Shown here in pieces: positions 19 through 64,000 of a stretch of DNA of 64,000 nt. The translations under genes were made by a program, and so were the position numbers. Each line of letters starts with the position of its first letter. Within the stretch, counting starts at the first letter, position 1. This DNA comes from Oscillospiraceae bacterium (GTDB lineage Bacteria; Bacillota; Clostridia; Oscillospirales; CAG-272): the NCBI GenBank assembly GCA_015064315.1, contig SVSL01000005.1:182-64181 (forward strand), read 5' to 3'. The notes under the pieces are model-generated. The model searched no databases, had not been told where the DNA came from, and worked only from the letters and a program-made list of their open reading frames with translations.

Positions 19-45
19 CGGGGCGTCGAGGACGTCGCCCCCTAC
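19..45. repeat. Solo REP-like hairpin arm (CTAC-tailed) at the window edge
   Basis: CGGGGCG-TCGAGGACGT-CGCCCC-CTAC. It is identical to the arm at 14313..14340, and its partner arm presumably lies upstream of the window. Confidence 0.7.
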
Positions 46-111: not shown

Positions 112-188
112 GTAGGGGCGATTCATGAATCGCCCGTTTTAAAAATGATTGAATCCGTATGGGCGGGCGCTTCGTGAAGCGCCCCTAC
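112..188. repeat. GTAG...CTAC twin-hairpin doublet (REPIN-like)
   Basis: GTAG-GGGCGA-ttcatgaa-TCGCCC at 112..136 and GGGCGC-ttcgtgaa-GCGCCC-CTAC at 161..188. The same architecture recurs at 13990, 14399, 16079, 25834 and 25964. Confidence 0.75.
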
Positions 189-396: not shown

Positions 397-490
397 TGTA
401 GGGGTCGACGTCCTCGACGACCCGAGAAGCAACAAATTTTGCTTTTTATACGGCTACCAATCCGGACCGTCGAGGACGCCGGTCCCTACA
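397..490. repeat. REPIN/MITE-like inverted pair of 28-nt hairpin arms
   Basis: The left arm is TGTAG-GGGTCG-ACGTCCTCGA-CGACCC-G (397..424). The right arm is C-GGACCG-TCGAGGACGC-CGGTCC-CTACA (463..490). Confidence 0.75.
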
Positions 491-13581: not shown

Positions 13582-13760
13582 AGTGAAATGTTTTGCTCTT
13601 GCAAAACGTGAAATAATGTGCTAATGCACATTGTGAAATATCTCGCTTTGCTCGATGTGAAATGAAATTTGCCCACATTTGCGAAGCAAATATTTCAAAC
13701 GCCGCAGGCGTATTTCACATTTCGCAGAGATATTTCACTTGCCCGCAAGGGCAAATTTCG
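13582..13760. repeat. GTGAAAT-anchored hairpin array (4 forward and 3 reverse units)
   Basis: GTGAAAT at 13582, 13607, 13632 and 13656, each followed by a different hairpin. ATTTCAC at 13711 and 13731 and ATTTCG at 13754 are each preceded by a hairpin. Confidence 0.8.
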
Positions 13761-13989
13761 TTGGCGTTGTGCCAGGGGGCACAACGCCATGCCGTGGGGG
13801 TTTTTGTGCTTTTTTGGGGGAAAATCAATGTTTTTTGCCAAAAGGTATTCCTATTCTCAAAAAGTTGTGATATAATGGGGAGGATAAAAGAACGTTGCAG
13901 AAAACGGGCGATGGGGTCTCCGAACGAATTTCCGTATTCCCTCGTGCAGAGAAAACGCCGAACGTGCGGCGAGCCTTCCTTGTTTGATC

Positions 13990-14062
13990 GTAGGGGCGAC
14001 CATTGGTCGCCCGTATGCAAGGATAAGATTTTTTAGAGCGGGCGTTTAAAGAACGCCCCTAC
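13990..14062. repeat. GTAG...CTAC twin-hairpin doublet
   Basis: GTAG-GGGCGACC-att-GGTCGCCC (13990..14013) and GGGCGTT-taaag-AACGCCC-CTAC (14040..14062). Confidence 0.75.
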
Positions 14063-14126: not shown

Positions 14127-14154
14127 TGTAGGGACAGGCGTCCTCGACTGTCCG
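14127..14154. repeat. Solo 28-nt REP-like arm
   Basis: TGTAG-GGACAG-GCGTCCTCGA-CTGTCC-G, identical to 62689..62716. Confidence 0.7.
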
Positions 14155-14211: not shown

Positions 14212-14340
14212 TGTAGGGGGCGACGTCCTCGACGCCCCGAAAAACGAAAGAATTTTCAATTTGCATCCGGCTATTATCTGTAGCCATATAAAAAGCAAAA
14301 TTTGTTGCTTTCCGGGGCGTCGAGGACGTCGCCCCCTACA
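14212..14340. repeat. REPIN/MITE-like element with perfect 28-nt inverted arms
   Basis: TGTAGGGGGCGACGTCCTCGACGCCCCG (14212..14239) and its exact reverse complement (14313..14340). Confidence 0.85.
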
Positions 14341-14398: not shown

Positions 14399-14473
14399 GT
14401 AGGGGCGATTCACGAAGCGCCCGTTTGAAAAGAATAAGATTTTTACAGGCGGACGACCAATGGTCGCCCCTAC
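14399..14473. repeat. GTAG...CTAC twin-hairpin doublet
   Basis: GTAGGGGCGATTCACGAAGCGCCCG (14399..14423) and GGCGGACGACCAATGGTCGCCCCTAC (14448..14473). The 35-nt upstream flank is shared with 13955..13989. Confidence 0.75.
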
Positions 14474-14830: not shown

Positions 14831-16042
14831 TTACCATTGCTTCAGTCGCTTTTTAGCGGCTTCGGCGTAGGCGGAGAGATCGGGCTCTTCCCACGATTTG
14901 TTACAGGAAAATCCCAGCGTTTGGGGGAGACGATAATCGGGCAGATTATCCCGCAGGGTCAGCTCTTCGCGAATGGCTTGCAGATAGTTAAAGCCGAACT
15001 CAAGGCTGGGGGAAACGTAATGCCCCTCGTCCCATTCGTTCCAGTTGTCGATCATAAGGAGACGGTTGGCGTAGCTCTCCTTGGGGAGGCTTTCCATGCG
15101 CTCCAAAAGCTTTTGAAGGAGTATGCGGAAGCTTTCGGGAGAGAGCTTCCAGTTCCGAGCCCAACGCTCGGGGGTGTTTTCCATGAGAATGCCTTTTTCA
15201 ATGCGCGGAGAGGGATCCCACATACAGGACGCCGTGGGCACAAAATAGTCGGGAAGATTTTTGATGCGCAGATCGGTGTCGTCCAATTGCTTTTGAATGA
15301 CTTCCTCGTCGGTGGGGTAATTCAGCTTGACCGAATGACAGTAGGCAAAGCTGAAATCGTACCCACGTGCGCGAAAATCTTCAAATACCGAGAGATCATC
15401 CTTGCGATATTCGGCGGCAAAGATCATGCCGTCAAAGCCCCTCTCTTTTGCCATTTCGCGGCAGAGATCAAAGACACGCGCTTGTTCTTTGGCACTTCCA
15501 AAGGCATCTGCAAGCTGCTTTTGCACGTCGTAAACGAAGAGAACAGGCTTGTTGTCGATCTTGAGATAATTTTCCTTGGAAAAATAATGCTCCAGCCAGA
15601 AGGGCATGAGATTTTCGATCATGTCTTGGCTGTCGGATGCCCCCCAGGCACCTTGCGTTTCAAACATGATGGAGAATTTCATTTGCTTTCCGTGCTTGGC
15701 GCGGAACAGCCCTTCGTGGATGCCGTGGGCGCAACGGAGGTCTTCCACCGTTACTTTTTTGCCCACGTTGTGCTTTCTGCGGTACCAGCAGTAGATCCAG
15801 CAGTTGATGCCGTGCTCCAAGCACCATTTGATCTCCCAGTCGGTAACGGCAGGGTCTTCCTCGTCGTAGTATCCCATCAAGGGGGTGCGCTCGGGGTAGG
15901 AGTGGATCTCGGGAAAGCCCTCGTGCAGCTCCGCCGCGCCTTTTTTCCATGCGGGATAGTAGTGGGCGGCAATGATGCGGTCCTCTTTAACGGTGACCGT
16001 TCTCGGATCGGGCATTTCGTCGTACAGATGAATGTTATACAT
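14831..16042 (-). CDS. WbsX/GH99-like domain protein (putative glycosidase)
   Basis: HYYPAWKKG near the N-terminus and NWNEWDEGHY near the C-terminus, as in WbsX-like TIM-barrel proteins. The family call is made by eye. Confidence 0.6.
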   Translation of the reverse strand: MYNIHLYDEMPDPRTVTVKEDRIIAAHYYPAWKKGAAELHEGFPEIHSYPERTPLMGYYDEEDPAVTDWEIKWCLEHGINCWIYCWYRRKHNVGKKVTVEDLRCAHGIHEGLFRAKHGKQMKFSIMFETQGAWGASDSQDMIENLMPFWLEHYFSKENYLKIDNKPVLFVYDVQKQLADAFGSAKEQARVFDLCREMAKERGFDGMIFAAEYRKDDLSVFEDFRARGYDFSFAYCHSVKLNYPTDEEVIQKQLDDTDLRIKNLPDYFVPTASCMWDPSPRIEKGILMENTPERWARNWKLSPESFRILLQKLLERMESLPKESYANRLLMIDNWNEWDEGHYVSPSLEFGFNYLQAIREELTLRDNLPDYRLPQTLGFSCNKSWEEPDLSAYAEAAKKRLKQW

Positions 16043-16078: not shown

Positions 16079-16126
16079 GTAGGGGCGTTCTGTGAACGCC
16101 CGCGGGCGCACACAGTGCGCCCCTAC
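16079..16126. repeat. Back-to-back GTAG...CTAC twin hairpin
   Basis: GTAG-GGGCGTTC-tgtg-AACGCCC-G-C-GGGCGCAC-aca-GTGCGCCC-CTAC, located between two minus-strand genes. Confidence 0.75.
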
Positions 16127-25833: not shown

Positions 25834-25896
25834 GTAGGGCGGGGGCTTGCTCCCGCCGAAAGATAAAAGGAAGGCGGCACCAAGGCACCGCCCTAC
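25834..25896. repeat. GTAG...CTAC twin-hairpin doublet (variant GGGCGG core)
   Basis: GTAGGGCGGGGGCTTGCTCCCGCC ... GGCGGCACCAAGGCACCGCCCTAC. Confidence 0.65.
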
Positions 25897-34444: not shown

Positions 34445-34777
34445 GTTTTTAAAACACCAAGATCGTGCCGCAAGGCACGGACAAAAACGATGACCGGAAA
34501 GAAGTAGCTTCTTCCAAGCATCCGTACAGAGAGCTGTCGGTTGGTGCGAGACAGACGGAACGGGAGAGTGAATACATTCCGAGAGTTGTGTACCGAAAGA
34601 GTCGGGATCCGATCCATCCCATACGGCTCCGGTAGAGTGCATCGGGTGCGCCCGTTATCGCGTAAAGGGTATGTTAGTACCCTATGAGGCCGTATTCGTG
34701 AGGATACGGTGAATTGAGGTGGTATCACGAGATAAGTATATCCCGTCCTCTGTTATTCGCGGAGGGCGGGTTTTTTT
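34445..34777 (+). promoter_or_regulatory. T-box riboswitch leader (tRNA-sensing antiterminator), candidate specifier UAC (Tyr)
   Basis: The conserved elements occur in canonical order: AG box AGAGAG (34528), distal loop GGUGCGAG (34543), GAA-UAC-A (UAC at 34573..34575), F-box CCGUUA (34652..34657), T-box GAAUUGAGGUGGUAUCACG (34711..34731), and a terminator at 34742..34770 with a U7 run. Confidence 0.82.
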
Positions 34778-49399: not shown

Positions 49400-49480
49400 C
49401 GGGCTGTCGAGGGCGCCAGCCCCTACCGGTTGAAGGGAAAATAAGCGATTATCGGTAGGGGACGGCGCCTCGACGTCCCG
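49400..49480. repeat. Pair of REP-like arms in inside-out orientation
   Basis: C-GGGCTG-TCGAGGGCGC-CAGCCC-CTAC (49400..49426) and GTAG-GGGACG-GCGCCTCGAC-GTCCC-G (49455..49480). Confidence 0.7.
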
Positions 49481-54739: not shown

Positions 54740-54854
54740 AAATTCTGCGGTGCAGAATTTGCAGTGAAATACGGCTTCGCCGTGTGAAATTCGCCTATGG
54801 CGAGTGAAATCGATTGCAAGCAATCGGTGAAATACGCCTGCGGCGTGTGAAAAA
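54740..54854 (+). repeat. GTGAAAT-anchored hairpin array (5 units) preceded by a 10-bp hairpin
   Basis: CAAATTCTGC-ggt-GCAGAATTTG, then GTGAAAT at 54765, 54785, 54805 and 54828 and GTGAAAA at 54848. The stems are ACGGC/GCCGT, TCGCC/GGCGA, CGATTGC/GCAATCG and ACGCC/GGCGT. Confidence 0.85.
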
Positions 54855-62064: not shown

Positions 62065-62065
62065 T

Positions 62066-62554
62066 ATGAAGAACAACCGTTTGGAAATCCTTTTGGATTT
62101 TCTTGGGCGATTTGCCAAGGAACACATCAGCATGGCATTGGCGTGCATCCTGTTGTTTTTCTTTTACCGGGACATGGTGGGCGATCTCGTATTATTGATC
62201 GTTCTTGCTTTTTTGGTGCTATACGGAACCGCTATGGCGGTGTGTTATTTTGGAATGACCAAGCTGGAAAAATATCAGAGAAGCGGGACGGTGACGGGGA
62301 AGCGGTTGTTTGGGCTGTCTGTTCTGATCGCTATGCCCATCTATTATTTGTGGATGGTGGTGTCTCTGATTCCCATTGTTCGGTACGAGCTTTGGCTGCT
62401 CACCGGATTGCCGCTTGTAATCATAACCGGAACTACGCTTTTCTCGGTTGTGGATCATTGGAGAGAAAACAAGGCTTTGTTCTGGCTTTTCCAAGTCGGC
62501 GTTTACCTGTGTGTGCTGGCTGGTGGACAACTGGTGATCCATTTGCTTTTCTAA
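62066..62554 (+). CDS. Hypothetical membrane protein (about 4 TM helices)
   Basis: The ATG lies 2 nt after the mutL stop. The hydrophobic segments span the whole protein. Confidence 0.65.
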   Translation: MKNNRLEILLDFLGRFAKEHISMALACILLFFFYRDMVGDLVLLIVLAFLVLYGTAMAVCYFGMTKLEKYQRSGTVTGKRLFGLSVLIAMPIYYLWMVVSLIPIVRYELWLLTGLPLVIITGTTLFSVVDHWRENKALFWLFQVGVYLCVLAGGQLVIHLLF

Positions 62555-62688
62555 CCCCAATTGTGCGGAGCAACAAGAAACTCCTTCCGGCATTTTCTGG
62601 AAAAAATGCCACCTCCCTCTGGGAGGGAGGCTCAAAGGAACCTTCGCCGCGGTATAAACGGCGATTCGACAAAAGTTGATTTTTCGTT

Positions 62689-62813
62689 TGTAGGGACAGG
62701 CGTCCTCGACTGTCCGAAAACAAAAGATCTTTGCTTGGTTGATGGTTACTATTGACAACCGTATAAAAGCGATATTTTTTCTTTGCGGACAGTCGGGGAC
62801 GCCTGTCCCTACA
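62689..62813. repeat. REPIN/MITE-like element with 28-nt inverted arms
   Basis: TGTAGGGACAGGCGTCCTCGACTGTCCG (62689..62716) and CGGACAGTCGGGGACGCCTGTCCCTACA (62786..62813), with one loop mismatch. Confidence 0.8.
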
Positions 62814-62947
62814 TTTCAAAAAATAACACGGCGATTAAGAGCCAAAAATCTGTTTGTTTTGCGGCGTTGAAAGACTGTCGCCCGTCTTCTCCTACGGATA
62901 GAAAAACTAACATCCCCATTTACATAGCAGCCTCCTTTGTGAAAGTT

Positions 62948-63002
62948 TTTGGAGGTGTCGGAACCTTTTTTCAAAAGGGTTCTGACAAAAAAGAAAAATT
63001 CA
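62948..63002. repeat. TGTGAAAG-TTTTTGGAGG + GGAACC-T/A hairpin element (family copy 3, degenerate)
   Basis: TGTGAAAGTTTTTGGAGGTGTCGGAACCTTTTTTTCAAAAGGGTTCTGAC. Confidence 0.6.
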
Positions 63003-63057
63003 ATCAAAAAACAGGGCGTAAGCTGTGTTCTTACGACCCGGGAAAGGACTTTGAATC

Positions 63058-64000
63058 ATGTCAAAGCATTTTGAACTGTTAAAGCAAGAGGGCAGGGCGC
63101 GCAGGGGCGTTCTGCACACGGTACACGGGGACGTTCAGACCCCCGTGTTCATGAACGTAGGCACTTGCGCCGCCATTAAGGGCGGTGTCAACACCATGGA
63201 GCTTCGCGACATCGACTGTCAGGTGGAGCTTTCCAATACCTACCACCTGCATCTGAGACCCGGCGACGGGCTCATCAAGGACATGGGCGGACTTCACAAA
63301 TTCATGAACTGGGATCGTCCGATCCTGACCGACAGCGGCGGATTCCAGGTCTTCTCCCTGTCTCAGCTTCGCAAGATCACCGAGGAGGGGGTTCGCTTCG
63401 CTTCTCACATCGACGGCAAGCGTATCTTCATGGGACCCGAGGAGAGCATGCAGATCCAATCCAATCTGGCGTCCACCATTGCCATGGCGTTTGACGAATG
63501 CGTGGAAAATCCCGCAACCCATCAGTACTGCAAGCAGAGCATGGAGCGCACCTACCGTTGGCTGCTTCGTTGTAGAGCTGAGATGGACCGCCTCAATTCT
63601 CTGCCCGATACCATCAATAAAAACCAGATGCTCTTTGCCATCAACCAAGGCGGTACCTATGAGGATCTCCGCATTGAGCACATGAAAATGATCCGCGAGG
63701 TGGAGTGCGAGGGCTACGCCATTGGCGGACTTGCCGTGGGTGAGACCACCGACGAAATGTACCGCATCATCGACGCGGTAGAGCCCTATATGCCCACCGA
63801 TAAGCCCAGATACCTCATGGGAGTGGGAACCCCCTGCAACATTCTGGAGGCGGTTCACTACGGCGTGGACTTCTTTGACTGCGTCATGCCCAGCCGCAAC
63901 GCCCGTCACGGAAATCTTTTCACGTGGCACGGCAAGATCAATCTCATGAACGAAAAATATGCCCGTGATCCCAGACCCTTTGACGAGGGCTGCGATTGCC
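63058..64000 (+). CDS. tgt: tRNA-guanine transglycosylase (queuine tRNA-ribosyltransferase), 3'-partial
   Basis: It is open to the window end and so is absent from the ORF track. HTVHGDVQTPVFMNVGT, LTDSGGFQVFSL, GGLAVGE, LMGVGTP. Confidence 0.9.
   Translation, partial: MSKHFELLKQEGRARRGVLHTVHGDVQTPVFMNVGTCAAIKGGVNTMELRDIDCQVELSNTYHLHLRPGDGLIKDMGGLHKFMNWDRPILTDSGGFQVFSLSQLRKITEEGVRFASHIDGKRIFMGPEESMQIQSNLASTIAMAFDECVENPATHQYCKQSMERTYRWLLRCRAEMDRLNSLPDTINKNQMLFAINQGGTYEDLRIEHMKMIREVECEGYAIGGLAVGETTDEMYRIIDAVEPYMPTDKPRYLMGVGTPCNILEAVHYGVDFFDCVMPSRNARHGNLFTWHGKINLMNEKYARDPRPFDEGCDC

Follow-up and report, generated by a model that had tools for sequence, protein, structure and literature searches.

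The convergent doublet at positions 14212-14340 of the stretch of Oscillospiraceae DNA analysed here (the window, 64,000 nt, which is C116:182-64181 of genome G000; positions on other contigs are given with their C-number in G000) very probably belongs to a large family of GTAG-tagged repetitive extragenic palindromes (REPs) with inverted doublets like those of REPINs (REP doublets forming hairpins), which would be recognised, cut and rejoined by a REP-associated tyrosine transposase (RAYT) of the HUH/Y1 type. A REP/REPIN-like system had been proposed in a preliminary description made from the window alone. That proposal is supported by the finding that G000 has two intact RAYT-like genes and that such genes co-occur with the repeats among congeners; the accompanying remark that the window itself holds no RAYT gene is correct. 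G000 is a metagenome-assembled genome (MAG) of 2.24 Mb in 116 contigs, which is 81.5% complete and has a G+C content of 50.7%.

Family-A arms and their doublets

The hairpin arm that defines the family, here called family A, consists in its exact form of TGTAG, a 6-bp stem, the loop RCGTCCYCGA and the exact complement of the stem; the unit, (T)GTAG with a 6-bp stem and a 10-nt loop, is 26-28 nt long. All ten arms reported in the preliminary description are found in the window where it had placed them (Table 1), and its six stems (GGGGCG, GGACCG, GGGTCG, GGACAG, GGGCTG and GGGACG) are all present, every one with its exact complement. As it had also claimed, the two arms of the element at 397-490 carry different stems. 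The shared loop holds for eight of the ten arms, which have the 10-nt loop RCGTCC(T/C)CGA (the loop of the arm at 62786-62813, GCGTCCCCGA, fits this pattern), but not for the arms at 49400-49426 and 49455-49480, which carry variants. A search of the window with the GTAG and loop pattern, allowing up to two mismatches, gives 12 matches compared with 0.82 expected from shuffles, and 9 of the 12 are true arms. The doublet at 14212-14340 contains a central hairpin, GGCTA-N7-TAGCC, in its spacer, and its 56-nt arms are 82% complementary.

The genome-wide count of arms and doublets that the preliminary description had called for gives 229 GTAG-headed family-A arms and 73 convergent arm pairs across the 2.24 Mb of G000. 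The stems are GGACCG (80 arms), GGGGCG (65), GGGTCG (37), GGACAG (26), GGGCTG (7) and GGGACG (6). Within the convergent pairs the G-to-G distance is 124-126 nt in 57 of 73, with a mode of 125 nt; same-strand (tandem) neighbours are spaced at 84-85 nt. Doublets account for 146 of the 229 arms, and single arms, tandem arrays and recombinant halves are common too. The true number of arms is probably higher, since 20 of them lie less than 150 nt from contig ends. The arms are mostly intergenic and avoid coding sequence: 17% of them lie under frames of at least 200 codons, compared with 85% of the genome.

The conserved doublet unit extends from TGTAG to CTACA and has a sharp length mode at 128 nt. 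It is made of interchangeable half-units around the small central hairpin GGCTA-N7-TAGCC, and the stems of its two arms often differ. Of the 48 doublets of exactly 128 nt no two are identical (similarity between nearest neighbours is 82-99%, and the mean is 79%), which argues for a diversified population rather than a single recent duplication. The features of family A match those described for GTAG-tagged REPs (Di Nocera 2013), namely a unit of 20-40 nt with an unpaired GTAG, high copy number, extragenic location and compensatory changes, and the doublets have the inverted REPs, short spacer and conserved unit length by which REPINs are recognised (Bertels & Rainey 2011). Exact arms are present in many genomes of Oscillospiraceae, Ruminococcus and Acutalibacteraceae. 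A search of Rfam returned no family that matches the arms, and a search of the literature for conserved words of the arm and of a module nested in some arms (described below) returned chance matches only.

Some arms are chimeric, with the left half-stem of one subfamily and the right half of another, such as GGACCG with CGCCCC (C42:30582, C51:18468 and C67:111285 are examples). These chimeras, which suggest recombination between copies, are rarer among plain arms and seem more frequent among arms that bear the nested module.

Covariation of the stems

Arms for the study of covariation were gathered from G000 together with about 200 loci in other genomes, and were anchored solely on GTAG and the loop. 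A perfect 6-bp stem is present in 411 of the 441 arms collected in this way, and 14 different perfectly paired stems occur among them in several genomes; in 414 of 454 arms the base before GTAG is a T. When the set is reduced to 62 distinct arms, 94.4% of the cells pair, compared with 78.4% in shuffles, and changes on both sides are seen in 63 cells, compared with 17 in shuffles. These changes fall at three of the six stem pairs, one of which shows all four Watson-Crick combinations (CG, UA, AU and GC); in every slid register the pairing collapses. Such a covariation test had been named in the preliminary description as a possible refutation of its reading, and its outcome is positive across genomes, with none of 500 shuffles reaching the observed score. 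The complementarity of the stems is real across genomes and is not imposed by how the arms were collected.

The GTAGGG foot and the loop stay constant while the dominant stem changes from one genome to another. In particular, G043 has GGACAG only and G048 is dominated by GGACCG, while GGGACG and GGGCTG dominate in Ruminococcus flavefaciens FD-1 and ATCC 19208, and GGGCCG and GGGATG are found elsewhere. Mismatches within the stems show no strand bias (G:T/T:G 15, A:C/C:A 13), which fits folding of both DNA strands better than selection on one RNA strand.

Two single-copy RAYT-like genes

The preliminary description had proposed a search of the full genome for Y1 transposase genes flanked by the arms. 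RAYT-like genes do exist in G000, but the Pfam model fails to find them and the arms do not flank them. A search of G000 with PF01797 (Y1_Tnp) reported nothing; matches to this model in relatives were mostly IS200-type genes that are unrelated to the arms, and proved a misleading lead. The two genes, RAYT-A and RAYT-B, were instead recovered by tblastn (E values from 1e-30 to 1e-73), using as queries open reading frames (ORFs) from nine other genomes rich in exact arms, which have weak Y1 matches and adjoin or overlap arms. These query ORFs are RAYT-like in having a beta-strand, HUH, WQ..(Y/F)xDHIIRN and YIxxNP. When the Pfam Y1_Tnp model is applied directly to RAYT-A and RAYT-B, the E values are only 0.012 and 0.002, which explains why the first genome search missed them.

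Each gene is present in a single copy in G000. Their catalytic motifs are NHIH, IWQ and YICENP in RAYT-A and DHIH, IWQ and YIHKNP in RAYT-B, and no variation is seen across 38 homologues at residues H99, H101, W157, Y178, N182 or P183. The NCBIfam model for REP-associated tyrosine transposases, NF047646, matches RAYT-A with an E value of 1.7e-19 and RAYT-B with one of 2.1e-20, and RAYT-B has a sequence match to TnpA-REP of E. coli (PDB 4ER8) with an E value of 3.9e-9. An AlphaFold2 (AF2) model of RAYT-A, which has a mean pLDDT of 72 and a core above 85, retrieves 4ER8 as the top match in Foldseek, followed by the TnpA structures of IS200, IS608 and ISDra2. By these comparisons both genes are RAYT-like and have complete catalytic motifs. 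With RAYT-A as query, 5,681 protein clusters are found at an E value of 1e-10 or less, a few of which have been named RayT by JGI.

Arms within the RAYT reading frames

Each RAYT gene contains two in-frame arms of one family, which are convergent, one on each strand, and bracket the segment that encodes HUH: the first arm lies before HuH, and the second (encoding GASRTSPPT in RAYT-A and GRPMVAPT in RAYT-B) lies after it. The arms are of family A in RAYT-A and of a second family, B, in RAYT-B (Table 1). RAYT-A is otherwise unique in G000, only the 16-mers of its two arms recurring, 64-65 times. An origin of the doublet spacers from the interior of the RAYT gene was considered and rejected, as only the arms match. 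In the AF2 model of RAYT-A, the peptides encoded by the arms form low-confidence loops, at residues 49-60 and 115-131.

The convergent pair recurs in most of the RAYT-homologue loci of relatives that span the whole gene, and the type of the in-gene arm tracks the paralogue; besides family A and family B there is a third type, GGGAGG/GGCTTGCT. In G010, G001 and G048 the in-gene stem type is also the type of all or nearly all of the family-A arms listed for those genomes. The peptides of homologues usually change jointly with the stem type, as in VGTGVLDGP with GPSRTPVPT or VGVDVLDDP with GSSRTSTPT; a few homologues, for example P0005 and P0006, pair different stem types.

Some homologues (P0038, P0044, P0052, P0011 and P0004) carry in-frame arms in tandem, either 2-6 of them at the first site or a pair at the second. 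These tandem arms lengthen the protein by up to about 60 residues and leave the frame intact.

Distribution and turnover among congeners

Co-occurrence of arms and RAYT genes was assessed in 24 congener genomes. A RAYT homologue is present in 12 of the 14 that have family-A arms and in none of the 10 without arms (Fisher p = 6.7e-5). Copies of the exact arm pattern number 0-52 in the congeners, compared with 177 in G000. The finding against which the preliminary description had set its reading, namely the lack of any mobilising gene together with identical repeat positions in all relatives, is not what is seen: a candidate gene exists, and the positions and numbers of the repeats differ among relatives.

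The comparison of orthologous spacers, which had been suggested between strains, was informative in part: occupancy differs among congeners at one spacer, but the spacer of the 14212-14340 doublet is not comparable, because its flanking gene at 14831-16042 is accessory. This gene was found in just 2 of 40 congeners, and neither has repeats near it. The informative spacer, 62065-63057, lies between a gene ending at about 62064 and a conserved gene at window position 63058 (82-97% amino acid identity), the two being syntenic in most of the congener loci examined. In G000 the spacer is 993 nt long and holds the family-A doublet at 62689-62813; in the closest congener, G051 (L218), a family-B doublet occupies the corresponding place; and in most of the other congeners (among L219-L246) the same spacer is roughly 30-80 nt long and free of repeats. 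The first approximately 480 nt of this spacer (62065-62544) are common to G000 and G051 only. A 178-aa ORF at 62143-62679 was considered as a conserved gene and rejected.

RAYT-A orthologues with internal stops are found at G023:C140:5114-5641 (L158; two TGA) and G010:C15:97041-97544 (L160; one TAA). The genomes that carry these stop-bearing copies have just 1 and 7 family-A arms, as expected if the enzyme and the repeat population decay together.

A module nested in the arm loops

Some arms of G000 contain a rod-like module of 77-99 nt, GTAGCRAAGCGGCGCGAG ... ATGAAT-hairpin-AGA ... GAGCGTGACCGAGYCGCARCGAGA. Examples are found at C56:10697-10799, C42:31030-31132 and C85:481-583, and there are about 30 more, none of them in the window. 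In 24 of the 31 complete copies in G000 the module replaces the central TCC of the family-A loop within otherwise normal arms or doublets; the remaining copies occupy the loops of other hairpin families. Across the 31 copies 96% of the cells pair, with changes on both sides at 15 pairs, and one G-U pair is invariant, which argues that the fold is strand-specific, whether as RNA or as one DNA strand. A covariance model finds 34 copies in G000 and 7-16 in many congeners, and the module is also present in G004 and G021, which have neither arms nor a RAYT homologue. A search of Rfam found no family for the module, and its orientation relative to neighbouring ORFs shows no bias (14 copies on the strand of the upstream ORF, 12 on the opposite strand).

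One speculation that would join these observations, and which we consider rather unlikely, is a nested system of three layers, in which the RAYT gene carries its own substrate, as one in-frame arm per strand around HUH, and the single-stranded loops of the dispersed arms serve as landing sites for the 77-99-nt module, which would then be one repeat colonising another's loops.

Proposed mechanism and alternative explanations

In the mechanism that we favour, the arms would be non-coding DNA hairpins that fold on single-stranded DNA, and a single-copy HUH/Y1 RAYT (TnpA-REP), encoded outside the window, would recognise the arms and cut and rejoin them nearby. Recognition would depend on two invariant parts, the TGTAGGG foot and the 10-nt loop, and on the shape of the helix; reading the helix as a shape would explain why the middle stem pairs covary freely. 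Arms and doublets would then be copied or moved through single-stranded intermediates, as is the case in vitro for proteobacterial TnpA-REP. A precedent for recognition through both loop and foot is the TnpA-REP of S. maltophilia, which in vitro cleaves only if GTAG is present, depends on a specific loop base to bind, and tolerates changes in the lower stem (PMC8266576). That the RAYT binds, cleaves and spreads the arms of G000 is what we infer from sequence.

Several observations weigh against this interpretation. The relatives compared are different species rather than strains, and they offer no clean pair of a filled and an empty site. Two congeners, G002 (19 arms) and G007 (7 arms), have arms and no RAYT homologue, both being MAGs that are about 80% complete. 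The flanks of both RAYT genes are free of GTAGGG hairpins for about 300 nt, so that the canonical REPtron layout is absent. There are six stem subfamilies and one RAYT-A, and the in-gene stem GGGGCG (65 arms) is not the commonest (GGACCG, 80). Finally, the NF047646 scores of the two proteins, 70.2 and 73.1 bits, are just below the 80-bit cut-off of that model.

The alternative that survives best, which nevertheless appears improbable, is that the hairpins act chiefly at the level of RNA, as 3'-end stabilisers, terminators or processing sites, that they spread by recombination and that the link to the RAYT is incidental. The mostly intergenic position of the arms is compatible with this, as is the fact that they are stable, GC-rich hairpins often clustered behind genes, and many REPs have been argued to act as RNA (Di Nocera 2013). 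However, the arms lie on both strands as convergent pairs, there is no excess of G:U mismatches on one strand, and an invariant loop and GTAG foot combined with a covarying stem fit recognition of a folded strand by a protein; moreover, the arms co-occur with RAYT homologues, and identical arms lie inside RAYT ORFs. A role as RNA may coexist as a secondary use of the arms.

Somewhat less probable still is the idea that the RAYT genes are victims, the arms having spread by other means (replication slippage, gene conversion or another enzyme) and having inserted into two tolerant loops of the protein. Arms can accumulate at these places, as is seen from the homologues with two to six tandem in-frame arms at site one or two at site two, and both the chimeric arms and the modular halves of the doublets speak for frequent recombination between copies. 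Against these stand the two sites and the convergent orientation, which are fixed in all 38 aligned proteins and in most homologue loci; the arm type, which tracks the paralogue; and the congeners without RAYT homologues, which, G002 and G007 excepted, are armless. A comparable fixed pair of arms is not seen in other genes.

It is very improbable that the doublets are miniature inverted-repeat transposable elements (MITEs) of a DDE-type insertion sequence with the arms as terminal inverted repeats: the 128-nt units, inverted ends and high copy number would suit such an element, but no target-site duplication is evident at isolated doublets whose flanks are unique, each end forms a covarying hairpin of its own whose stem often differs from that of the other end of the same unit, and within G000 these ends are found in no genes other than RAYT-A and RAYT-B, both single-copy. 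CRISPR arrays, integron attC sites and group II intron fragments were dropped, as nothing in the sequence fits them.

Other repeats and features of the window

Family A is one of several GTAG-headed hairpin families in G000, which has 860 GTAG-headed perfect hairpins in total. The preliminary description, which had reported a single family, needs correction in this respect: the window holds a second and a third GTAG-headed family, whose hairpins alternate with those of family A in mosaic clusters. Family B, which consists of GTAGGGGCG, a palindrome and CGCCC, has approximately 170-208 copies in G000, and the G-to-G spacing of its doublets peaks at 75-76 nt and at 47 nt. Family C has the form GTAGGGCGGGGG-loop-CCCGCC; no cognate RAYT for it was found in G000, an 81.5%-complete MAG. 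In the congeners G005 and G008 there is a third RAYT paralogue, whose gene contains arms of a related kind (GTAGGGGAGG/GGCTTGCT).

A further repeat in G000 consists of a hairpin, GAGCATTTTGGG-TAGCGGTC-CCAAAATGCTC, followed by GCGGGAGC...CCGTC, and is found at C85:1-1800 and C39:4500-4800 and on C51 and C78. It is repeated in tandem at about 329 nt in C85 and is conserved in G004 and G021. Copies of it that lack the nested module resemble deletions between short AGCG repeats.

The window also contains two Gut-1 RNA motifs (Rfam RF01706), at 13687-13763 (-) and 54762-54838 (+), with scores of 79 and 59 bits, which lie in the same repeat-rich spacers, and a T-box leader at 34481-34753.

Table 1. 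GTAG-headed repeats of the window and RAYT-like genes of G000 (window positions unless a contig is given)
Feature	Position	Strand	Remarks
Family-A arm	19-45	-	Stem GGGGCG, loop ACGTCCTCGA
Family-B arms	112-188	+ and -	112-135 (+), 165-188 (-); cognate type of RAYT-B
Short convergent family-A doublet, 94 nt	397-490		Arms 397-424 (+, GGGTCG) and 463-490 (-, GGACCG); different stems
Family-B arms	13990-14062	+ and -	13990-14012 (+), 14040-14062 (-); BIME-like mosaic cluster with family-A arms
Family-A arm	14127-14154	+	Stem GGACAG; opens 85-nt same-strand tandem with next arm
Convergent REPIN-like family-A doublet, 129 nt	14212-14340		Arms 14212-14239 (+) and 14313-14340 (-), both GGGGCG
Family-B arms	14399-14473	+ and -	14399-14422 (+), ~14451-14473 (-, imperfect stem)
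Tight family-B doublet	16079-16126	+ and -	16079-16101 (+), 16104-16126 (-)
Two family-C arms	25834-25896		GTAGGGCGG... hairpins, loop GGCTTGCT/GCCTTGGT
Family-A arm	49400-49426	-	Stem GGGCTG, variant loop GCGCCCTCGA
Degenerate family-A arm	49455-49480	+	Stem GGGACG, 9-nt loop GCGCCTCGA; back to back with arm 49400-49426
Convergent family-A doublet, 125 nt	62689-62813		Arms 62689-62716 (+) and 62786-62813 (-), both GGACAG
RAYT-A	C10:7808-8398		196 aa, intact; found by tblastn
Family-A arms in RAYT-A	C10:7946, C10:8199	+, -	Encode VGGDVLDAP (+) and GASRTSPPT (-)
RAYT-B	C52:17386-17883		166 aa, intact; found by tblastn
Family-B arms in RAYT-B	C52:17509, C52:17702	+, -	Encode VGATIGRP (+) and GRPMVAPT (-)
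BIME, bacterial interspersed mosaic element.

Relation to known systems and significance

To our knowledge, work on REP/REPIN-RAYT systems has been confined almost entirely to Proteobacteria. The E. coli system of REPs and BIMEs with TnpA-REP (RayT, yafM; Nunvar 2010; Ton-Hoang 2012; Messing 2012) shares with that of G000 the GTAG-tagged, high-copy, extragenic palindromes, the mosaic clusters of several hairpin types and the single-copy HUH/Y1 enzyme, and its structure 4ER8 ranks first for RAYT-B by sequence and for the RAYT-A model by fold. However, the REPs of E. coli have bulged stems and variable loops and flank the gene, whereas the arms of G000 have perfect stems and an invariant loop and lie inside the ORF; the hosts differ as well, one being a proteobacterium and the other a gut Clostridia MAG. 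In Pseudomonas and Enterobacteria, the REPIN-RAYT systems (Bertels & Rainey 2011; RAYT groups 2 and 3) likewise have inverted doublets of fixed length, a population that is diversified within the genome and a single-copy RAYT whose presence tracks the repeats; unlike them, G000 has modular halves, often with different stems, tandem arrays at 84-85 nt and a RAYT without flanking REPINs, and it belongs to another lineage.

In-frame REPs inside tnpA-REP genes have been known since 2018 and are not new here: Quentin, Siguier, Chandler and Fichant (2018, PMC6006769) described them as a unique feature of subclass 2.4 (RAYT group 4), where they lie mostly between HuH and Y, in addition to flanking REPs, in Cyanobacteria, Bacteroidetes and 'various phyla'. 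The genes of G000 and their homologues share with this subclass the in-frame REPs between HuH and Y and an insert whose length varies by repeated units. In motif and length, RAYT-A (NHIH, WQ, YICENP with E for N, 196 aa) is close to the subclass (NH[IFV]H, WQ, YIxNNP, median 194 aa), while RAYT-B has DHIH in place of NH[IFV]H and 166 aa. Compared with the 2018 description, the genes analysed here have a fixed convergent pair that brackets HUH, with one site before HuH, and no flanking REPs, and their hosts are gut and rumen Clostridia.

The REPtron of S. maltophilia (group 3; Corneloup 2021, PMC8266576) also has short perfect palindromes preceded by GTAG, and the requirement of its enzyme for GTAG and a loop base fits the pattern of G000, with its invariant foot and loop and variable stem. 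The stem of its unit is 8 bp long and the loop 3 nt, compared with 6 bp and 10 nt in family A. In the REP/RAYT literature searched, Clostridia come up only in connection with IS200-type genes or with RAYT group 1 and its few repeats, and no abundant REP family is described in them. As far as these comparisons go, G000 stands apart by its bracketing convergent pair, its lack of flanking REPs, a 10-nt loop that does not vary, and its host group.

The findings have practical consequences. The Pfam Y1 model misses RAYT genes of this kind, and the arms break MAG assemblies and give rise both to spurious ORFs and to unusual peptide motifs (VGGDVLDAP and GASRTSPPT, for example). If the RAYT gene did carry its own substrate, the enzyme and the master copies of its target would be inherited together and would diverge together, and the in-gene pair might serve as a self-limiting switch or supply new REPINs. 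Taken together, the results point to a large and diversified REP population, with what is probably its RAYT, in uncultured gut and rumen Clostridia, where an enzyme gene that holds its own target hairpins would offer a natural handle on the co-evolution of enzyme and repeat.

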